Positions 3,922-9,038 of a stretch of 20,000 bases of DNA are shown here, piece by piece. The notes under the pieces are model-generated. The model was given only the letters and a program-made list of their open reading frames with translations, was not told the origin of the DNA and ran no database searches. The DNA lies in the IMG/VR virus record IMGVR_UViG_3300035327_000120; one strand, given 5' to 3'. The number at the start of each line of letters is the position of its first letter. Position 1 is the first letter of the stretch. The position numbers were made by a program, and so were the translations under genes. This DNA comes from an uncultured virus (IMG/VR IMGVR_UViG_3300035327_000120) (taxonomy: Duplodnaviria; Heunggongvirae; Uroviricota; Caudoviricetes).

Positions 3922-5145
3922 TCAAACTCCTGCAAAGGGTTTCAGATATGAGAACGGAGCCGTCAGTTCACCCTTGCGAATGAGCGTTGCCCTCTCGATT
4001 ACTCGGTCGGGGTCAACGTTCATCAGAGCAGGGAAAACATGCTCCATTAACTTTTCTCCAAAGTTCGTCGACGCCTCTACCGGTATAGCGTTAGGCAGAG
4101 TGTCAACAGCCATTACGCCGACAGCAGAGCCGGACATAGCGTCCGTTTCCTCCCACTTGGCTCTGTCAATGCCGTAGAACGGATTGTCATGCGTAGAGGG
4201 ACGTACTGTCGTTTCCACGCTTCCGTTGATGTCGCAGGTAACGTCGCCTACCACATCTATTCTGGTAAAGCCGAGCATATCCATAGTGAGATACTTTGGC
4301 TGTGCCGGCGCCCAAAAGTGGCAGGGGATAAAGATTGTCGTTTTTCCTGAGAACTTACCAAAGTCCGAGCAGTACATATCAGGGTGAGCTTTGAAGTGTT
4401 CTCTGTCGTACTGGTAGCCGTCCTTTCTCTTTACGAGGTCAGAGGTCTTGGCCACGGTGAAAATCGGGTTATCTATCATTTCTTCAGGCATCGTGAGAAA
4501 TTCTTCGACTGACACATATCTCACGCCGAGTTCATTCAGGATAAACTGAGCCCCGGCAGAAGCACGGCCATTTCCAGTAACGAGAATACGAATGTCATTG
4601 AAGCGGTCATGCTCCAGTTCAGAAATTATCGGCCGGCCGAGGTTCAGAATATCGGCCACCGTGAATTTCTTATCCGGAGCAGGGAGATTGAACAGGTCGT
4701 TACGCAGTCCATACAGTCGGAGCGAGTTATACACGCCCATGACTCCAGCCCAAAAACTGAAAGACACAAGGCGCTTGCCCTCTCTGGTCAGATACTCGTA
4801 GTCGGTCAGGGTGATGTTTTTCTCAATCATCGCCCGGCAGAGATTTTGATTGTACGGTTGCATCTTTCCTATATGGGCGAAGAAGAAATAATGTTTGTCC
4901 GGGATAAGGCTCTTTATGCTGACTTCCTTAACTCCGAAAAGCCAATCACAAGAAGCCATATCCTCTGAAAGAACTGCGCCGGCTTTAATGTATTCCTCAT
5001 TCGGAAAAATTCGCAGACAGGAGGGTTGAACATATATCTCAAGGCCCGGATAGGTCGATAGCAATTTCTTGCACTGCGCCGGGGTTATCGGAGTGCGATT
5101 GTCAACAGGGATTTTCGTTTCCCTTAGAATACCTATGCGTTTCAT
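3922..5145 (-). CDS. Saccharopine dehydrogenase / lysine-ketoglutarate reductase-like NAD(P)-dependent oxidoreductase (AlaDH/PNT superfamily)
   Basis: IGILRETK..DNRTPITP, VQPS..RIF.NEEY..AGA, FGVKEV, FFFAHIGKMQPYN, DYEYL, Rossmann VTGNGRASAGA, GDVTCDINGS, MAVDTLP. Confidence 0.88.
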   Translation of the reverse strand: MKRIGILRETKIPVDNRTPITPAQCKKLLSTYPGLEIYVQPSCLRIFPNEEYIKAGAVLSEDMASCDWLFGVKEVSIKSLIPDKHYFFFAHIGKMQPYNQNLCRAMIEKNITLTDYEYLTREGKRLVSFSFWAGVMGVYNSLRLYGLRNDLFNLPAPDKKFTVADILNLGRPIISELEHDRFNDIRILVTGNGRASAGAQFILNELGVRYVSVEEFLTMPEEMIDNPIFTVAKTSDLVKRKDGYQYDREHFKAHPDMYCSDFGKFSGKTTIFIPCHFWAPAQPKYLTMDMLGFTRIDVVGDVTCDINGSVETTVRPSTHDNPFYGIDRAKWEETDAMSGSAVGVMAVDTLPNAIPVEASTNFGEKLMEHVFPALMNVDPDRVIERATLIRKGELTAPFSYLKPFAGV

Positions 5146-5840
5146 TCTGTCACCTCACTTTCCATTTGCTTTTTGGCGAGTTCCAAGATTTTGCAGAACG
5201 CCATGTTGCTTGACTTGATTTCGTATTTCTTGCGGATCTGCCCGATAAGCTGGAGGTAGAAATCCTCATTTTCATCACCGTCAACGACCATTACGATGTC
5301 ATTCTTGCCGTTCTGCTCGTTGATTATACCGACCAGTTCATCAAGCAGCTCCATGTCTTTGTGATAGAATACCACGCAGCATGAATAATGCTCGCTGGCC
5401 ACGGAGAAACTTACCCCCTCCGTGGTGATAGGCTCCAGTTCGTCGATGTTGACATGGGCAAAACTCTTGAAATCCACACTCTGAATTTCTGCAAACATTC
5501 TTTTCAGAATGCCTTTGTCATCTTCACCGTGAAGCGAGTTGTGAGAGAGTTGCAGAGCCACAATCTCGTCCGGGGTCATGTCAGCCTCATCAGCGTAGAT
5601 AACAGGTACCTCCCTGTACCGTAGTTTTACTGCGGCCCTATATCGGTGGTGGCCGGAGATAATAACATATCTCCCAGTATCGGTCTTTCGGTAACAGCCT
5701 ATGGCGCTGCTTAACCCTCCAGAGATACGAATGTTCTCCACGAGCCTGTTGAAATCATGCTCGGACATCTGATTTGCATTGACACTCGCCTCATCTATAA
5801 GGCTTATGTCAATAGAGGCTTGTTTCCATTTATTACTCAT
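5142..5840 (-). CDS. ParB/sulfiredoxin N-terminal domain protein
   Basis: NANQMS..DFNRLVENI...YVIISGHHRYRAA matches the ParB/Srx core; QLSHNSLHGEDD follows. ATGA overlaps at both ends. Confidence 0.85.
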   Translation of the reverse strand: MSNKWKQASIDISLIDEASVNANQMSEHDFNRLVENIRISGGLSSAIGCYRKTDTGRYVIISGHHRYRAAVKLRYREVPVIYADEADMTPDEIVALQLSHNSLHGEDDKGILKRMFAEIQSVDFKSFAHVNIDELEPITTEGVSFSVASEHYSCCVVFYHKDMELLDELVGIINEQNGKNDIVMVVDGDENEDFYLQLIGQIRKKYEIKSSNMAFCKILELAKKQMESEVTE

Positions 5841-7855
5841 TTCTTACGGCTTATAAACTGTTTGTACTTGGCGATAATATCAGTAAACTCTCCCTCGGTG
5901 CCGAGTTCACAAGTGTAGACTAAATGGTTTTTCTCCTGCGAAACTTTCTTGAATAGGCCACGGTACTTCATTGATACCGGATTGTGAGTGTAGACTTTCG
6001 TTTCACAAGTTACAAAGTCATCGAGGGTGCGCCGGGACAGGAATTTCTTCACCCAGCGAGATTTTACGCAGAGCAATATCAACTTGCTCAATCTCGGTAT
6101 GGCATTATTGGTGCAGAAATCAGTTACCAGCGAAATATCGTAGTCTTGCTTACTGAACTTGAAGCCGAAAGCCCCAAGCAGATAATCCTCATAGAACACG
6201 AGGAACGGAAAGGTTACTTTCGATACAATCTGTACCTTCTTGACATAATGCTTTTGCAACTGGAACACCACGTTTGCCGCGACGTGCCGGATTTTCAGTT
6301 TGGCAGGGTCGTCAATTACCAAATCATCTGGCGGCTCCTTGAAAGAGGGCATCTTCAACTTGACGGCCTTATACGTTACTGCGGCTTCCTTTTTGCGTGA
6401 ACAATAGAAAATTTTGTCGCCGACCGAGGCTATCTTCTGGAGGTGTTCATGGTAGGGGAAAGTGCTTACTAAGAACAGAGTCGTATTCTCCGGCAGAGTT
6501 TCCACGAGGTTCAGATACTCGGTTGAGTGAATTTCAAAACTCTCATTGTAATCGCTATGCTTGCGCAGGGCGCTTACTGCGGTTCTGCTTTTGCCGTAGT
6601 CATCAAAGTTAAAGAACACATCGCTGCCAACTTTTACAGCGTCATTGATAGTTCCAAGCCGGTAGTCGCAGTTGGTAAGGAACTCCACCATGCGTGTAGC
6701 CGCTTTGGTCGCATTTTGTATGGTGGTAGGCATTGCCGCCTGAATAGCCTCAAAACTCTTCTTGTAAAAGTCGGCCGATTTCAGATAGCGGCATATCTTC
6801 TTGAATACGATTAGGCAGGCGACCTGCTTAACTGGGTCGTCGCCGTTCAAATCTTCGAGGAACTGGAACGTGCTGTCATACTTGATGCGCAGACCCTCCC
6901 GGACAATCGCATACAAGATATGGTTAAACTCGTCGTTATTAAACACTATGAGTTTTTTCAACTTGCTCAATCGTACCTCGGTGGAGAATGAATAGGGATT
7001 TACGCACACAAGCTGATCGCCAGTGTTCTTCACTAAGACATTCAGCATGGATTTAGTCAAGTCCACCGCCGAGTGTGCCGTGGCACCGACGTCCATTTCT
7101 CTAATCGAAGAAAAGAATATCAGGGAGGGAGGCAACGCAGGAAGAGCCGAGGGTAACTTTATGGTCGATACCATTTGCTCTACCGTCTTTATGGCCCGAA
7201 AGTCATCTTCATTATGTTTCAGGGCATAATCTACATACCGATAGGCGAACATTATGCAGTTCATTATCTCCTGAAAATCGGTGGTGGTATTGAACAGGCG
7301 AAACTCTACCGTGCCTCTCACAAAGTAGGAAGCAATATTGACAAAGTGCCGGACATAGCCCTTGTTGTGGCTGTTCTCAAAGGCTCGTTGCAGTTCAGAG
7401 AATGATTGAGCCTTTTGCACTCTCTCGTAAAATTCCAGAGTTGGAGAGGGCCGGTATCTCTGCTCATCGCTGTACGGCGGCAAATGGCAGAGGTCTTTCA
7501 GGAGGTCGGTCGCATGGTAGGTCAGATAGTAGATGTTCTTCAGTTCATCGAGCGTTAAGTCGCCCACGAATATATGAACCTGAACGCCGCAGTCGCGTCG
7601 GGCTACCGCGCCATTTTCAGCGCAGCTTTCGACTACCTTACGGAAGGTGTCGAGGTCTTTATGGCATAGGTGCATGGGAGGCGTATTTATCTCGCCTCCG
7701 TATCTGGCCGATATAGTACCGCGTGTGCCGTCCGTGTTGTGGATTACCTCTTCCTCGTCCCAAGTGTAGTCAGAGGGAAAGTATATCTTTCTCTTCTCCA
7801 CGTTGGCAAGCTCCAGTTCTATGCCAAATGTTCTTTCTGTGATGCGTAGTTCCAT
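5837..7855 (-). CDS. 672 aa fusion: amidoligase (COOH-NH2 ligase, GCS fold) + degenerate DNA adenine methylase-like domain + Mom-like GNAT domain
   Basis: Start moved to ATG 7855 because the ORF-track extension lies inside a tRNA. N-term TFGIELE..TDGT..EINTPP..CGVQVHI..VN..GTVEFR is amidoligase-like. C-term FLVFYEDYLLGAFGF..LVTDF..IPRLSKLILL..TKVYTHNPVSMKYRGLF is like phage GNAT/Mom-like domains. Middle-domain call is weaker. Confidence 0.75.
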   Translation of the reverse strand: MELRITERTFGIELELANVEKRKIYFPSDYTWDEEEVIHNTDGTRGTISARYGGEINTPPMHLCHKDLDTFRKVVESCAENGAVARRDCGVQVHIFVGDLTLDELKNIYYLTYHATDLLKDLCHLPPYSDEQRYRPSPTLEFYERVQKAQSFSELQRAFENSHNKGYVRHFVNIASYFVRGTVEFRLFNTTTDFQEIMNCIMFAYRYVDYALKHNEDDFRAIKTVEQMVSTIKLPSALPALPPSLIFFSSIREMDVGATAHSAVDLTKSMLNVLVKNTGDQLVCVNPYSFSTEVRLSKLKKLIVFNNDEFNHILYAIVREGLRIKYDSTFQFLEDLNGDDPVKQVACLIVFKKICRYLKSADFYKKSFEAIQAAMPTTIQNATKAATRMVEFLTNCDYRLGTINDAVKVGSDVFFNFDDYGKSRTAVSALRKHSDYNESFEIHSTEYLNLVETLPENTTLFLVSTFPYHEHLQKIASVGDKIFYCSRKKEAAVTYKAVKLKMPSFKEPPDDLVIDDPAKLKIRHVAANVVFQLQKHYVKKVQIVSKVTFPFLVFYEDYLLGAFGFKFSKQDYDISLVTDFCTNNAIPRLSKLILLCVKSRWVKKFLSRRTLDDFVTCETKVYTHNPVSMKYRGLFKKVSQEKNHLVYTCELGTEGEFTDIIAKYKQFISRKK

Positions 7856-7867
7856 GCAAATAATGAT

Positions 7868-7942
7868 TGGAGCGAGAGCAGGGACTCGAACCCCGGACTC
7901 CGGCATGGTTAGCCGGCGCATTAGCCACTGTGCTACTCTCGC
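7868..7942 (-). tRNA. Non-canonical tRNA-Gly, anticodon ACC, A33, encoded CCA
   Basis: Minus strand folds as GCGAGAG TA GCAC-AGTGGCTA-ATGC G CCGGC-TAACCAT-GCCGG AGTC CGGGG-TTCGAGT-CCCTG CTCTCGC T CCA. Perfect 7-bp acceptor and 5-bp anticodon stems, TTCGA T-loop, Gly identity G1-C72/C2-G71/G3-C70/U73/C35C36. Confidence 0.93.
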
Positions 7943-7947
7943 ATATT

Positions 7948-7975
7948 GGCGTGAGGGCTATTCAACTCTCACGCC
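7948..7975. other. GC-rich hairpin between the DUF488 stop and the tRNA 5' end
   Basis: GGCGTGAGGG-ctattcaa-CTCTCACGCC inverted repeat; no U-tract on the minus strand. Confidence 0.65.
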
Positions 7976-7981
7976 GTATGT

Positions 7982-8401
7982 TCAGAGGTCATCAAACAAT
8001 GAGGGCGGCTCAATCTTCTCTGGCTTCTTGGGAGCAGGAGGAGTTGACACAAATTCTTTTATCTCTACCCCTGTCTGCTGTGTAAGATATTGAGCAAGCA
8101 GGTGCCTGTGGCAAAAGTCATCGGGCTTTTCATAGCAACATAAGGCCACATCAGAGCCGCCGCAGGTTCTCTCCAGTCTCTCTATAAACTCGTATGGGTC
8201 GAGCCGGGAGAGGATTTGCCGATATGCGTCAAGGTATTGCTGGTGTGATGCCTTTTTTACCATCCACGGTGTAGGCGCCACATCAGACATCACTACTGGC
8301 ACGGAAAGGAAGCGAGGCTGCCAACAGGCAATGCTCACAATCTTTATGCCCTCCTTTGCCAACGCTTTCGCATTGCCGAAATATGAAGTGTAGATTTTCA
8401 T
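7982..8401 (-). CDS. DUF488-family protein
   Basis: MKIYTSYF...VAPT...Y...Y..IL..LDP...DVALCCYEKPDDFCHRHLLA; ends in PSLFDDL. Confidence 0.85.
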   Translation of the reverse strand: MKIYTSYFGNAKALAKEGIKIVSIACWQPRFLSVPVVMSDVAPTPWMVKKASHQQYLDAYRQILSRLDPYEFIERLERTCGGSDVALCCYEKPDDFCHRHLLAQYLTQQTGVEIKEFVSTPPAPKKPEKIEPPSLFDDL

Positions 8402-8814
8402 GCTGATTTCTTTTTCGGGTTGATGTATTCCACGACGTCGAGGTGAAAGAGGGTCATGACTTTTTCTATGTTCCTGATCGGCATATTTCTGTATCCGTTG
8501 AAGAAAGCAGTCAGGCAGGTATTGTCGATATCGGTTTTCTCCGCAACCTCTTTCACTTTCATTCCAGATACAGCAAAATGCGATTTGAGAATTTCAGGCA
8601 GTTCCGAGGGAGGCAGAGCAGCACGGCCGGCGGTTTTTAAGCCGATAGACAATCCCAGTTCTTCCATTGCTTTGACAAACTTGGGATATGAGAGAGTACG
8701 AGAGCCATTGAGAAAAGCATTGAAATTGCTCGAAGCCACTCCAATAACCTTGCAAAACTCCCGCTGCTTAATGCCGGAGTCCTCCAACTTTTTTCTTATC
8801 GCTGTTCGTATCAT
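8398..8814 (-). CDS. Tandem XRE-type HTH transcriptional regulator, 138 aa
   Basis: Two HTH repeats (GIKQREFCKVIGVASSNFNAFLNGSR; GMKVKEVAEKTDIDNTCLTAFFNGYR). Start set at ATG 8814, just downstream of a consensus promoter. Confidence 0.85.
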   Translation of the reverse strand: MIRTAIRKKLEDSGIKQREFCKVIGVASSNFNAFLNGSRTLSYPKFVKAMEELGLSIGLKTAGRAALPPSELPEILKSHFAVSGMKVKEVAEKTDIDNTCLTAFFNGYRNMPIRNIEKVMTLFHLDVVEYINPKKKSA

Positions 8815-8835
8815 AGAGTCATTGATTTTATAGTG

Positions 8836-8867
8836 CAAAGTTAAGCAAATATTATCATTTTTACAAA
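8836..8867 (-). promoter_or_regulatory. Bacteroidetes sigma-A promoter for the modification/packaging operon
   Basis: Minus strand TTTG-N20-TAACTTTG fits the -33 TTTG / -7 TAnnTTTG consensus. Confidence 0.75.
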
Positions 8868-8951
8868 CTTTGCGTGTCTTATTTTCGTCGTTTCTAAACA
8901 ATATTTCCGAGGTTTTTGTTGGTGATTTATGAGTGCATAAGTTCTTCAAAA

Positions 8952-8983
8952 TTTGTTCTATTGCCGATTTTTGATTACTTTTG
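8952..8983 (+). promoter_or_regulatory. Bacteroidetes sigma-A promoter, plus strand, driving a small RNA
   Basis: TTTG (8952-8955)-N20-TACTTTTG (8976-8983); no credible plus-strand CDS follows. Confidence 0.75.
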
Positions 8984-9038
8984 CACTAAGTTTTATTCCG
9001 TAACAAAAGTCCTCTTACAGAGGCCATCTTTGTTTCAG

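Follow-up and report, generated by a model that had tools for sequence, protein, structure and literature searches.

INTRODUCTION

Non-proteinogenic tRNAs that feed non-ribosomal enzymes have so far been textbook cases only in staphylococci, where the non-proteogenic tRNA-Gly species (NP1–3) serve as glycine donors for FmhB, FemA, and FemB; this lineage is described as restricted to staphylococci, and its members are marked by the triplet UGC within their T-loops (PMC7826273). tRNA-dependent DNA modification was demonstrated only in 2023–2026, for the Mom protein of phage Mu working with host tRNAs. Mom moves glycine from Gly-tRNA-Gly onto N6 of adenine in double-stranded DNA, taking all three E. 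coli tRNA-Gly isoacceptors and rejecting Gly-tRNA-Ala (PMC13219725). Here, we examined a tRNA-Gly-like gene on the minus strand of a 20-kb stretch of DNA (hereafter, the window) from the uncultured virus record IMGVR_UViG_3300035327_000120 (Caudoviricetes), which has an anticodon loop without U33 and lies just upstream of a gene for a three-domain fusion enzyme. Comparison with related loci suggests that this tRNA probably decodes poorly and serves the downstream enzyme as a glycyl donor of its own in tRNA-dependent DNA hypermodification.

In the published work on Mom, the main text and the preprint regard the tRNA as a scavenged host resource, and the authors state in the peer-review file that the small size of Mom keeps it from reaching the anticodon loop; the main text, without supplementary file 1, mentions no phage-encoded tRNA (PMC13219725). 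We found no paper in the literature on phage-encoded carrier tRNAs, nor any account of tRNA-Gly genes that phages encode next to Mom or amidoligase–GNAT genes. Mutations in the anticodon loop of phage tRNAs are described as blocking nucleases of the VapC/PrrC type (PMC10264068). U33 is almost invariant in elongator tRNAs, and the natural exceptions given in the same source are the eukaryotic initiator tRNA-Met (C33) and the Candida tRNA-Ser(CAG) (G33). The window tRNA resembles them as a rare exception to the U33 rule, whereas they are ribosomal tRNAs with special decoding roles, and the examples given there include neither A33 nor a link to a transferase gene (PMC5041475).

RESULTS AND DISCUSSION

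A tRNA-Gly-like gene with a non-canonical anticodon loop

ARAGORN found a single tRNA gene in the window, at 7868–7942 (−), and typed it as tRNA-Gly with the anticodon acc; the Rfam model RF00005 matched 7871–7942 (−) with 51.3 bits (gathering score, 29; E-value, 1.4e-08). When the sequence was read as a cloverleaf, the acceptor stem was GCGAGAG/CUCUCGC, followed by U73 and an encoded CCA end, and the D-arm was GCAC-AGUGGCUA-AUGC, in which the GG is retained and C13 and A22 are mismatched. All five pairs of the anticodon stem (CCGGC/GCCGG) are formed, the variable region has 4 nt (AGUC), and the T-arm is CGGGG-UUCGAGU-CCCUG, with the pairs C49-G65, G50-U64, and G51-C63. The 7-nt anticodon loop, UAACCAU at 7905–7911 (−), reads U32-A33-A34-C35-C36-A37-U38, with A33 instead of the U33 that is nearly universal and with A34 as the wobble base. 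An earlier note, made from the sequence alone, had described this complete cloverleaf with its encoded CCA end and unusual loop, and ARAGORN, Rfam, and the sequence itself confirmed the description. A single-sequence minimum free energy fold gave no cloverleaf (z, −2.48), which is common for tRNAs, and covariance models were relied on instead.

Bacterial glycyl-tRNA synthetase (GlyRS) recognizes the identity set G1-C72, C2-G71, G3-C70, U73, C35, and C36, and the window tRNA carries this set in full. When its loop was compared with what a decoding-competent loop has, A33 stood in place of U33 and A34 was a non-standard wobble base for Gly, for which G, U, or C is usual; the 7-nt length and A37, a purine, were in order. 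In the 4.04-Mb genome that contains the window, 53 of the 54 tRNAs have U33, and the window tRNA is the sole exception. A canonical sister tRNA-Gly in a second prophage of the same genome has the loop UUUCCAA, from which UAACCAU differs at positions 33, 34, and 38.

The tRNA occupies a 126-nt intergenic gap inside an operon and is preceded by a hairpin. Its CCA end (7868) is separated by 12 nt from the ATG (7855–7853) of the downstream gene, which encodes a 672-aa fusion protein (5837–7855, −) with the Pfam domains Amidoligase_2 (residues 50–205), DAM-like-phage2 (269–410), and GNAT-phage-like (519–653), the likely user of the tRNA. The 12-nt spacing had been given in the earlier note and was confirmed; ATG 7855 was accepted as the start because homologues align from residues 1–8. 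The hairpin (7948–7975, −), read from the sequence between the stop codon of the DUF488 gene and the tRNA, lies 5 nt from the 5′ end of the tRNA and consists of an 8-bp stem (GGCGUGAG and CUCACGCC) closing a 12-nt loop; it has no U-tract and could be a processing or stability element.

The earlier note had named a one-off mutation or a sequencing error among the findings that would undo its reading. Against this, an IMG/VR contig and a second genome carry an identical tRNA (L003, L083/L236). Furthermore, the locus L084, whose enzyme is 94% identical to that of the window, retains UAACCAU though two other positions of its tRNA differ.

Gly-like tRNAs accompany the enzyme in related loci

We compared 103 full-length homologue loci, of which 79 came from IMG/VR (from the best 80 of 467 matches) and 24 from species-representative genomes. 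A same-strand Gly-like tRNA was present upstream of the enzyme gene in 80 of the 103 loci, 78 of them detected by ARAGORN and two more (L088 and L090) by a covariance model built from the upstream tRNAs that ARAGORN had found. The distance from the tRNA to the start codon was 50 nt or less in 20 loci, approximately 506 nt in one, and 601–1,600 nt in 59; the far-off tRNAs occupy the same slot of the cassette, with one extra enzyme gene inserted before the fusion enzyme. When the loci were dereplicated at 90% protein identity, 27 of 45 clusters had a tRNA, and at least one aberrant loop was present in 20 of these 27. At 70% identity, 14 of 25 clusters had a tRNA, and 12 had an aberrant loop. Two Gly tRNAs were present in 47 of the 103 loci, typically one canonical and one odd.

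The order of the cassette was fixed in 12 diverse loci annotated with Pfam: DUF488-N3a, the tRNA or tRNAs, an optional extra enzyme, the fusion enzyme, and a ParB_N-like protein. The optional enzyme between the tRNA and the fusion gene is octopine-dehydrogenase-like, alanine-racemase-like, or DUF4417. The ParB_N-like gene is followed by an AlaDh/PNT-like enzyme in the close clade and by an ATP-grasp Ddl-like ligase in the distant clade; the terminase comes last.

Charging positions are fixed and decoding positions vary

Fifty unique upstream tRNAs were aligned by MAFFT, with no structure fitting. G1, C2, G3, G10, C35, C36, U54, C70, G71, C72, and U73 were invariant in all 50, as were two G-C pairs of the T-stem next to its loop and the C that opens the CCA end. 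In the cloverleaf, 96.8% of the stem cells paired and both sides had changed in 16 of the 21 pairs, a result matched by none of 500 shuffles; slid controls were 38–55% paired. On this comparative evidence, the related upstream tRNAs are evolving and functional RNAs.

The variable features were positions 32, 33, 34, and 38 and the length of the anticodon loop (6–8 nt). A census of the loops covered 52 unique tRNAs (the 50 aligned and two from the covariance model): 21 combined U33 with U34, C34, or G34, 10 had U33 with A34, 13 lacked U33, and 8 had loops of 6 or 8 nt. The loops without U33 were UAACCAU, CAUCCAG, CAUCCUG, CAGCCAG, AAACCAU, UGUCCAU, and CCUCCAG. The T-loop had UGC instead of UUC in 19 of the 52 tRNAs, and the D-loop GG was missing in 22.

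These data reproduce across the 50 aligned tRNAs the pattern that the earlier note had seen in one, namely that the changes hit decoding positions and spare charging positions; the GlyRS positions that it listed are all present in the window tRNA and invariant in the alignment. The note had also looked to homologues for a conserved non-U33/A34 loop together with stem covariation. The stems covary and the charging positions are fixed; the loop departure itself is not universal, as the census makes plain.

The A33 loop CAUCCAG persists in loci whose enzymes are 57, 55, 47, 45, and 25% identical to the window enzyme, with all five anticodon-stem pairs replaced. Such retention of a loop across deep divergence, with the stems replaced, indicates that the odd loops are under selection rather than in simple decay.

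Two further observations concern the arrangement of the tRNAs. In one large group of near-identical viral contigs (L041–L082; e.g., L042:1748-1900), tandem tRNA-Gly pairs are usual. One member of the pair has the loop AUACCAU, a T-loop UGC, and no D-loop GG, and the other is canonical, with the loop UUCCCAA (UUACCAA in four loci). In L059, the first copy reads AUACGAU, a change of C36 to G that would break Gly identity. The larger related phages L025, L030, L032, L033, L034, and L039 carry tRNA arrays in the slot, approximately 1.1–1.7 kb upstream of the enzyme gene; the arrays that the distant clade sometimes has there hold Met, Asn, Lys, Arg, Ser, and Ile tRNAs.

Odd tRNA-Gly genes lie beside Mom genes

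IMG/VR was also searched with a degenerate pattern that combined the D-arm with a CANCCAG loop. Seven viral loci were recovered, of which two were known amidoligase loci and five were new. The five new loci represent two tRNA sequences and two Mom lineages that are 27–32% identical to each other. A Mom-family gene (PF25680) was present in all five, with E-values of 1.9e-43 and 1.5e-49 in the two that were scanned and by tblastn in the remaining three. In each of the five, the 3′ end of this gene touches or overlaps the tRNA, and terminase genes come next.

A wider set consisted of 80 Mom loci (the best 80 of 506, mostly at least 61% identical to one of the Mom proteins from the pattern search). 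A tRNA was present within 1.5 kb of mom in 32 of these loci, and all 32 were Gly-like, situated just downstream of mom on the same strand (14 loci) or the opposite strand (18 loci). Among the 22 unique tRNAs, 8 lacked U33, 8 had 8-nt loops, and 6 looked canonical, so that 16 of the 22 were aberrant. One of them has the loop CAACCAG, with A33-A34 as in the window tRNA. As far as sequence comparison goes, an odd class of tRNA-Gly is linked to the sole enzyme family with proven use of Gly-tRNA in DNA modification, and the amidoligase/Dam-like/GNAT fusion appears to share the functional company of Mom through this type of tRNA.

Two loci of uncultured phages (L148:2847-3562 and L149:2534-3234) show an overlap of approximately 12–15 nt between the Mom-family gene and the A33 tRNA-Gly. 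The two lie on the same strand in one lineage and are convergent in the other, and in both lineages the genes for the small and large terminase subunits come directly downstream; the amidoligase cassette of the window has the same genomic position, upstream of the terminase.

The window locus compared with described systems

The window enzyme and phage Mu Mom have no relation at the sequence level. The former unites three domains, among them an amidoligase and a Dam-like domain, and belongs to a larger cassette; Mu draws on host tRNAs. The C-terminal GNAT-fold domain has phage Mu Mom (PDB 8BV8) as its top structural neighbour, tied with generic GNATs. The domain did not match Pfam Mom (PF25680) at E-values up to 10 and had no match to PDB sequences, and the hhalign probability was 0.07 for Mu Mom and 0.09 for a profile of 20 Mom sequences. 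On the strength of the Pfam and hhalign results, membership of the window enzyme in the Mom family by sequence was rejected. The middle domain (pLDDT, 89.7) gave weak Foldseek matches (E-values, 4e-3 to 3e-2), the top 16 of which were mostly E. coli Dam, DpnM, and Mcbe1; its model thus weakly resembles Dam. Standalone GNAT-phage-like matches in Deltaproteobacteria and others (L107–L146) had no tRNA detectable by ARAGORN; six of these loci were excluded from one alignment owing to a frame error.

The staphylococcal non-proteogenic tRNA-Gly offers the other comparison. In both cases, an extra tRNA-Gly paralogue keeps the features for GlyRS charging. The staphylococcal copies are diverted from translation to an aminoacyl-transferase of the GNAT fold, and the window tRNA would be diverted likewise, as the 12-nt distance to the enzyme gene and the co-occurrence in 80 of 103 loci suggest. 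The UGC T-loops and missing D-loop GG counted above among the related phage tRNAs are further points of likeness, and the pairs of canonical and odd tRNA-Gly in many phage loci resemble the split between proteogenic and non-proteogenic copies. In contrast, the window tRNA is encoded by a phage and not by a chromosome, and its predicted acceptor is DNA and not peptidoglycan. It also departs in the anticodon loop (A33 and A34) rather than in the D- and T-arms or the T-stem: with its T-loop UUCGAGU and D-loop GG, it shows neither the D/T-arm departures of the staphylococcal type nor their weak T-stem pairs for EF-Tu. The relation of the window tRNA to the staphylococcal tRNAs is therefore one of analogy and not of membership, and the window case would be a variant that combines two known kinds of system, the non-proteogenic tRNA-Gly and tRNA-dependent DNA modification.

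A predicted glycyl carrier for DNA hypermodification

The earlier note had inferred a non-ribosomal glycyl carrier, and this inference draws its support from comparative tests: the association with the enzyme gene in 80 of 103 loci, the fixed charging positions, and the odd tRNAs at Mom genes. The host genome encodes a dimeric GlyRS (TIGR00389, 509.6 bits), and no glyQ was found in it. In the mechanism that we propose, the tRNA would be transcribed in the DUF488/tRNA/fusion-enzyme operon just upstream of the terminase and excised by the tRNA-processing enzymes of the host, and the dimeric host GlyRS would charge it via the retained identity positions. The loss of the U-turn nucleotide through A33 and the poor wobble base A34 would leave it little used by the ribosome, so that the charged tRNA would stay available. 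The GNAT-like domain would move the glycyl group from the 3′ end of the tRNA to phage DNA, probably to an adenine presented by the Dam-like domain; this step is modelled on phage Mu Mom, the only enzyme for which such a transfer, from host Gly-tRNA, has been shown (PMC13219725). The adduct would then be elaborated by the amidoligase domain and by the ParB-like and AlaDh/PNT-like neighbours, and the opine-/saccharopine-type dehydrogenases and ATP-dependent ligases of the cassettes suggest that the glycyl group is extended or condensed further.

A broader proposition, to which we give even weight for and against, is that phages have repeatedly evolved private, ribosome-blind tRNA-Gly cofactors. 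The changes in the anticodon loop and, in some lineages, in the T-loop and D-loop would then be selected anti-determinants of translation that leave GlyRS charging intact and reserve the glycyl pool for DNA hypermodification. Such a class would serve both Mom and the fusion enzyme, which is unrelated to Mom in sequence and whose cassette, with its opine-/saccharopine-dehydrogenase-like, ATP-grasp, and amidoligase components, would build a larger, chemically undescribed, glycine-derived adenine adduct. If the carrier reading holds, a viral tRNA with a disabled decoding loop and conserved charging elements would join the two ideas of a non-proteinogenic tRNA and of tRNA-dependent DNA modification, and phages could bring their own amino-acid donor for DNA chemistry. 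An odd tRNA-Gly beside a GNAT-fold gene upstream of the terminase would also be a simple genomic marker by which new pathways of DNA hypermodification could be found in phages of the gut and the environment, and a class of phage tRNAs would be explained beyond arguments from codon usage.

Several observations weigh against a carrier role for the window tRNA. Its T-stem, T-loop, and D-loop GG are all normal; the earlier note had itself remarked that no EF-Tu antideterminant is obvious, and this holds. With the elbow and T-stem normal, EF-Tu may still bind the tRNA, and exclusion from translation would have to come solely from the anticodon loop and rejection by the ribosome. Moreover, 23 of the 103 loci had no Gly-like tRNA within 3 kb or within the shorter sequence available (four of the 23 were clipped upstream), and 14 of the 52 unique tRNAs were canonical in the anticodon loop, T-loop, and D-loop together; therefore, a private odd tRNA is not obligatory for the enzyme. 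The exact loop UAACCAU is confined to close relatives (94–100% enzyme identity; two distinct tRNA sequences), and the case for selection of A33/A34 in the lineage of the window thus draws on few sequences. Finally, U33 is also missing from 8 of the 21 unique non-Gly tRNAs in the distant clade, which have C33 (Lys, Asn, and Ser), G33 (Asn and Arg), or A33 (Ile and Ser), with one undetermined case. These retain 7-nt loops and proper anticodons, and the five Met tRNAs of this clade are canonical. Loss of U33 need not equal loss of decoding, and these non-Gly tRNAs are not explained by the carrier model; nuclease evasion and further carrier tRNAs are both possible. Loops of 6 or 8 nt and UGC T-loops were restricted to the Gly-like tRNAs in the related loci.

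Alternative explanations

The alternative that survives best, which we nevertheless consider unlikely, is that the window tRNA still decodes GGU, and perhaps other Gly codons, well enough to support phage translation and that its loop has been mutated to escape a host anticodon nuclease or another tRNA-targeting defence. The concept has been published for phage tRNAs, and the likeness is that there, too, the anticodon loop is specifically the part in which a phage tRNA departs from its host or sister tRNA (PMC10264068). The 7-nt loop, A37, and the normal elbow and T-stem of the window tRNA suit a decoder, and the non-U33 Lys, Asn, Ile, Ser, and Arg tRNAs of the related phages, with their proper anticodons, point the same way. 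However, the nuclease-evading tRNAs described in that source remain decoders and usually occur in arrays that cover the targeted isoacceptors, whereas the only tRNA of the window is a Gly tRNA linked to a modification enzyme, and in this tRNA the U-turn base itself is replaced, contrary to the near-invariance of U33 in elongator tRNAs (PMC5041475). The host already supplies tRNA-Gly with the anticodons GCC, CCC, and UCC, and GGU is not enriched in the prophage. Escape from nucleases also does not predict an association specific to Gly and to the enzyme, as seen in the amidoligase–GNAT loci and in the 32 tRNAs beside Mom, and sister tRNAs that have 6- or 8-nt loops, a T-loop UGC, or no G18-G19 fit decoding poorly.

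It is less probable still, and in our view improbable, that the tRNA is a passenger without a carrier role, either as a captured tRNA-Gly in neutral decay or as tRNA-shaped punctuation for RNase P/Z between the DUF488 and enzyme messages. Its place in an intergenic gap inside the operon, with a hairpin before it, would fit punctuation; the three loop differences from the canonical sister tRNA would fit decay; and a public annotation has a 694-aa open reading frame (ORF) running across the tRNA (P0001). Against this stand the invariance of C35, C36, U73, and the first three acceptor pairs in all 50 aligned tRNAs while the stems covary, the conservation of CAUCCAG across deep divergence, and the Gly-only tRNAs beside Mom genes, which a passenger leaves unexplained.

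Very improbable is the remaining possibility, that A34 is deaminated to inosine and that the tRNA, as an ICC decoder of GGU, GGC, and GGA, helps translation across a broad range of codons: TadA-type deaminases act on A34, which recurs in relatives (AUACCAU, UUACCAA, CUACCUG, and AAACCAU), but bacterial TadA is specific for the tRNA-Arg(ACG) loop, a context that A33 and C36 do not provide here, the loss of U33 would be left unexplained, and GGN codons are already covered by the GCC, UCC, and CCC tRNAs of the host.

Neighbouring genes and public annotation of the enzyme

The first gene of the window cassette, directly upstream of the tRNA slot, encodes a DUF488-N3a protein (7982–8401, −; Pfam), which precedes the tRNA in all 12 related loci examined. 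Downstream of the fusion enzyme, the conserved ParB_N-like member is encoded at 5142–5840 (−; Pfam and PHROGs), and the cassette closes, ahead of the genes for the small and large terminase subunits, with a gene for an AlaDh/PNT-type (saccharopine-dehydrogenase-like) enzyme (3922–5145, −; Pfam). The long ORFs around the tRNA are all minus-strand phage genes, which according to Pfam and PHROGs include those for terminase (small and large subunits), Erf, a helicase, a replication initiator, and PcfJ/PcfK.

Read as its longest ORF, the enzyme gene (694 aa) begins at an ATG inside the tRNA (region 7856–7921). A 694-aa protein cluster derived from NCBI (P0001), with 192 member sequences, is 97% identical to the window enzyme, and public annotation seems to run the coding sequence of the enzyme across the tRNA gene.

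Genomic setting of the window

The window corresponds to G000:C1:2067891-2087890 of the 4.04-Mb genome, that of a gut bacterium in which the tRNA belongs to a prophage, and an identical 44-kb contig is present in IMG/VR. Eight Gly tRNA calls were made in the whole genome; the host tRNA-Gly genes are three GCC, one CCC, and one UCC. GGU accounted for 22.7% of the Gly codons in window genes and 22.0% in the long ORFs of the host, and codon compensation was rejected as a role for the tRNA, GGU not being enriched in the prophage. An attP site or integration remnant was likewise rejected: the tRNA is full length and in mid-operon, with no integrase nearby.

A DNA search found the window tRNA in 1 of 300 other genomes sampled from the family, and 31 further genomes matched weakly; the 10 of these 31 that were fetched as loci all had ordinary host tRNA-Gly genes with canonical loops. 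The stretch was also found in four metatranscriptome runs (X5–X8, from one study), solely as contigs of 8–22 kb that were unbroken across positions 5000–9000; being long and unbroken, these contigs say nothing on transcription or RNA ends.

Another homologue of the enzyme, 42% identical, lies in the second prophage of the genome (C1:848700-850709); the tRNA-Gly(UCC) found 885 nt upstream of it shares the architecture of the window tRNA and has the canonical loop given above. Both enzyme genes of this genome therefore have a tRNA-Gly within 1 kb. This second copy of the cassette (G000:C1:848700-851668) is arranged identically to the viral loci L012 and L013, in which an alanine-racemase-like gene separates the tRNA from the enzyme gene and an ATP-grasp Ddl-like gene comes after the latter. 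Elsewhere in the genome, a truncated tRNA-Gly(CCC)-like copy and an intact tRNA-Gly(CCC), approximately 9.7 kb apart (G000:C1:2176803-2176875 and 2186531-2186604), have the 3′ half in common, which looks like the att duplication of an element integrated in that tRNA gene.

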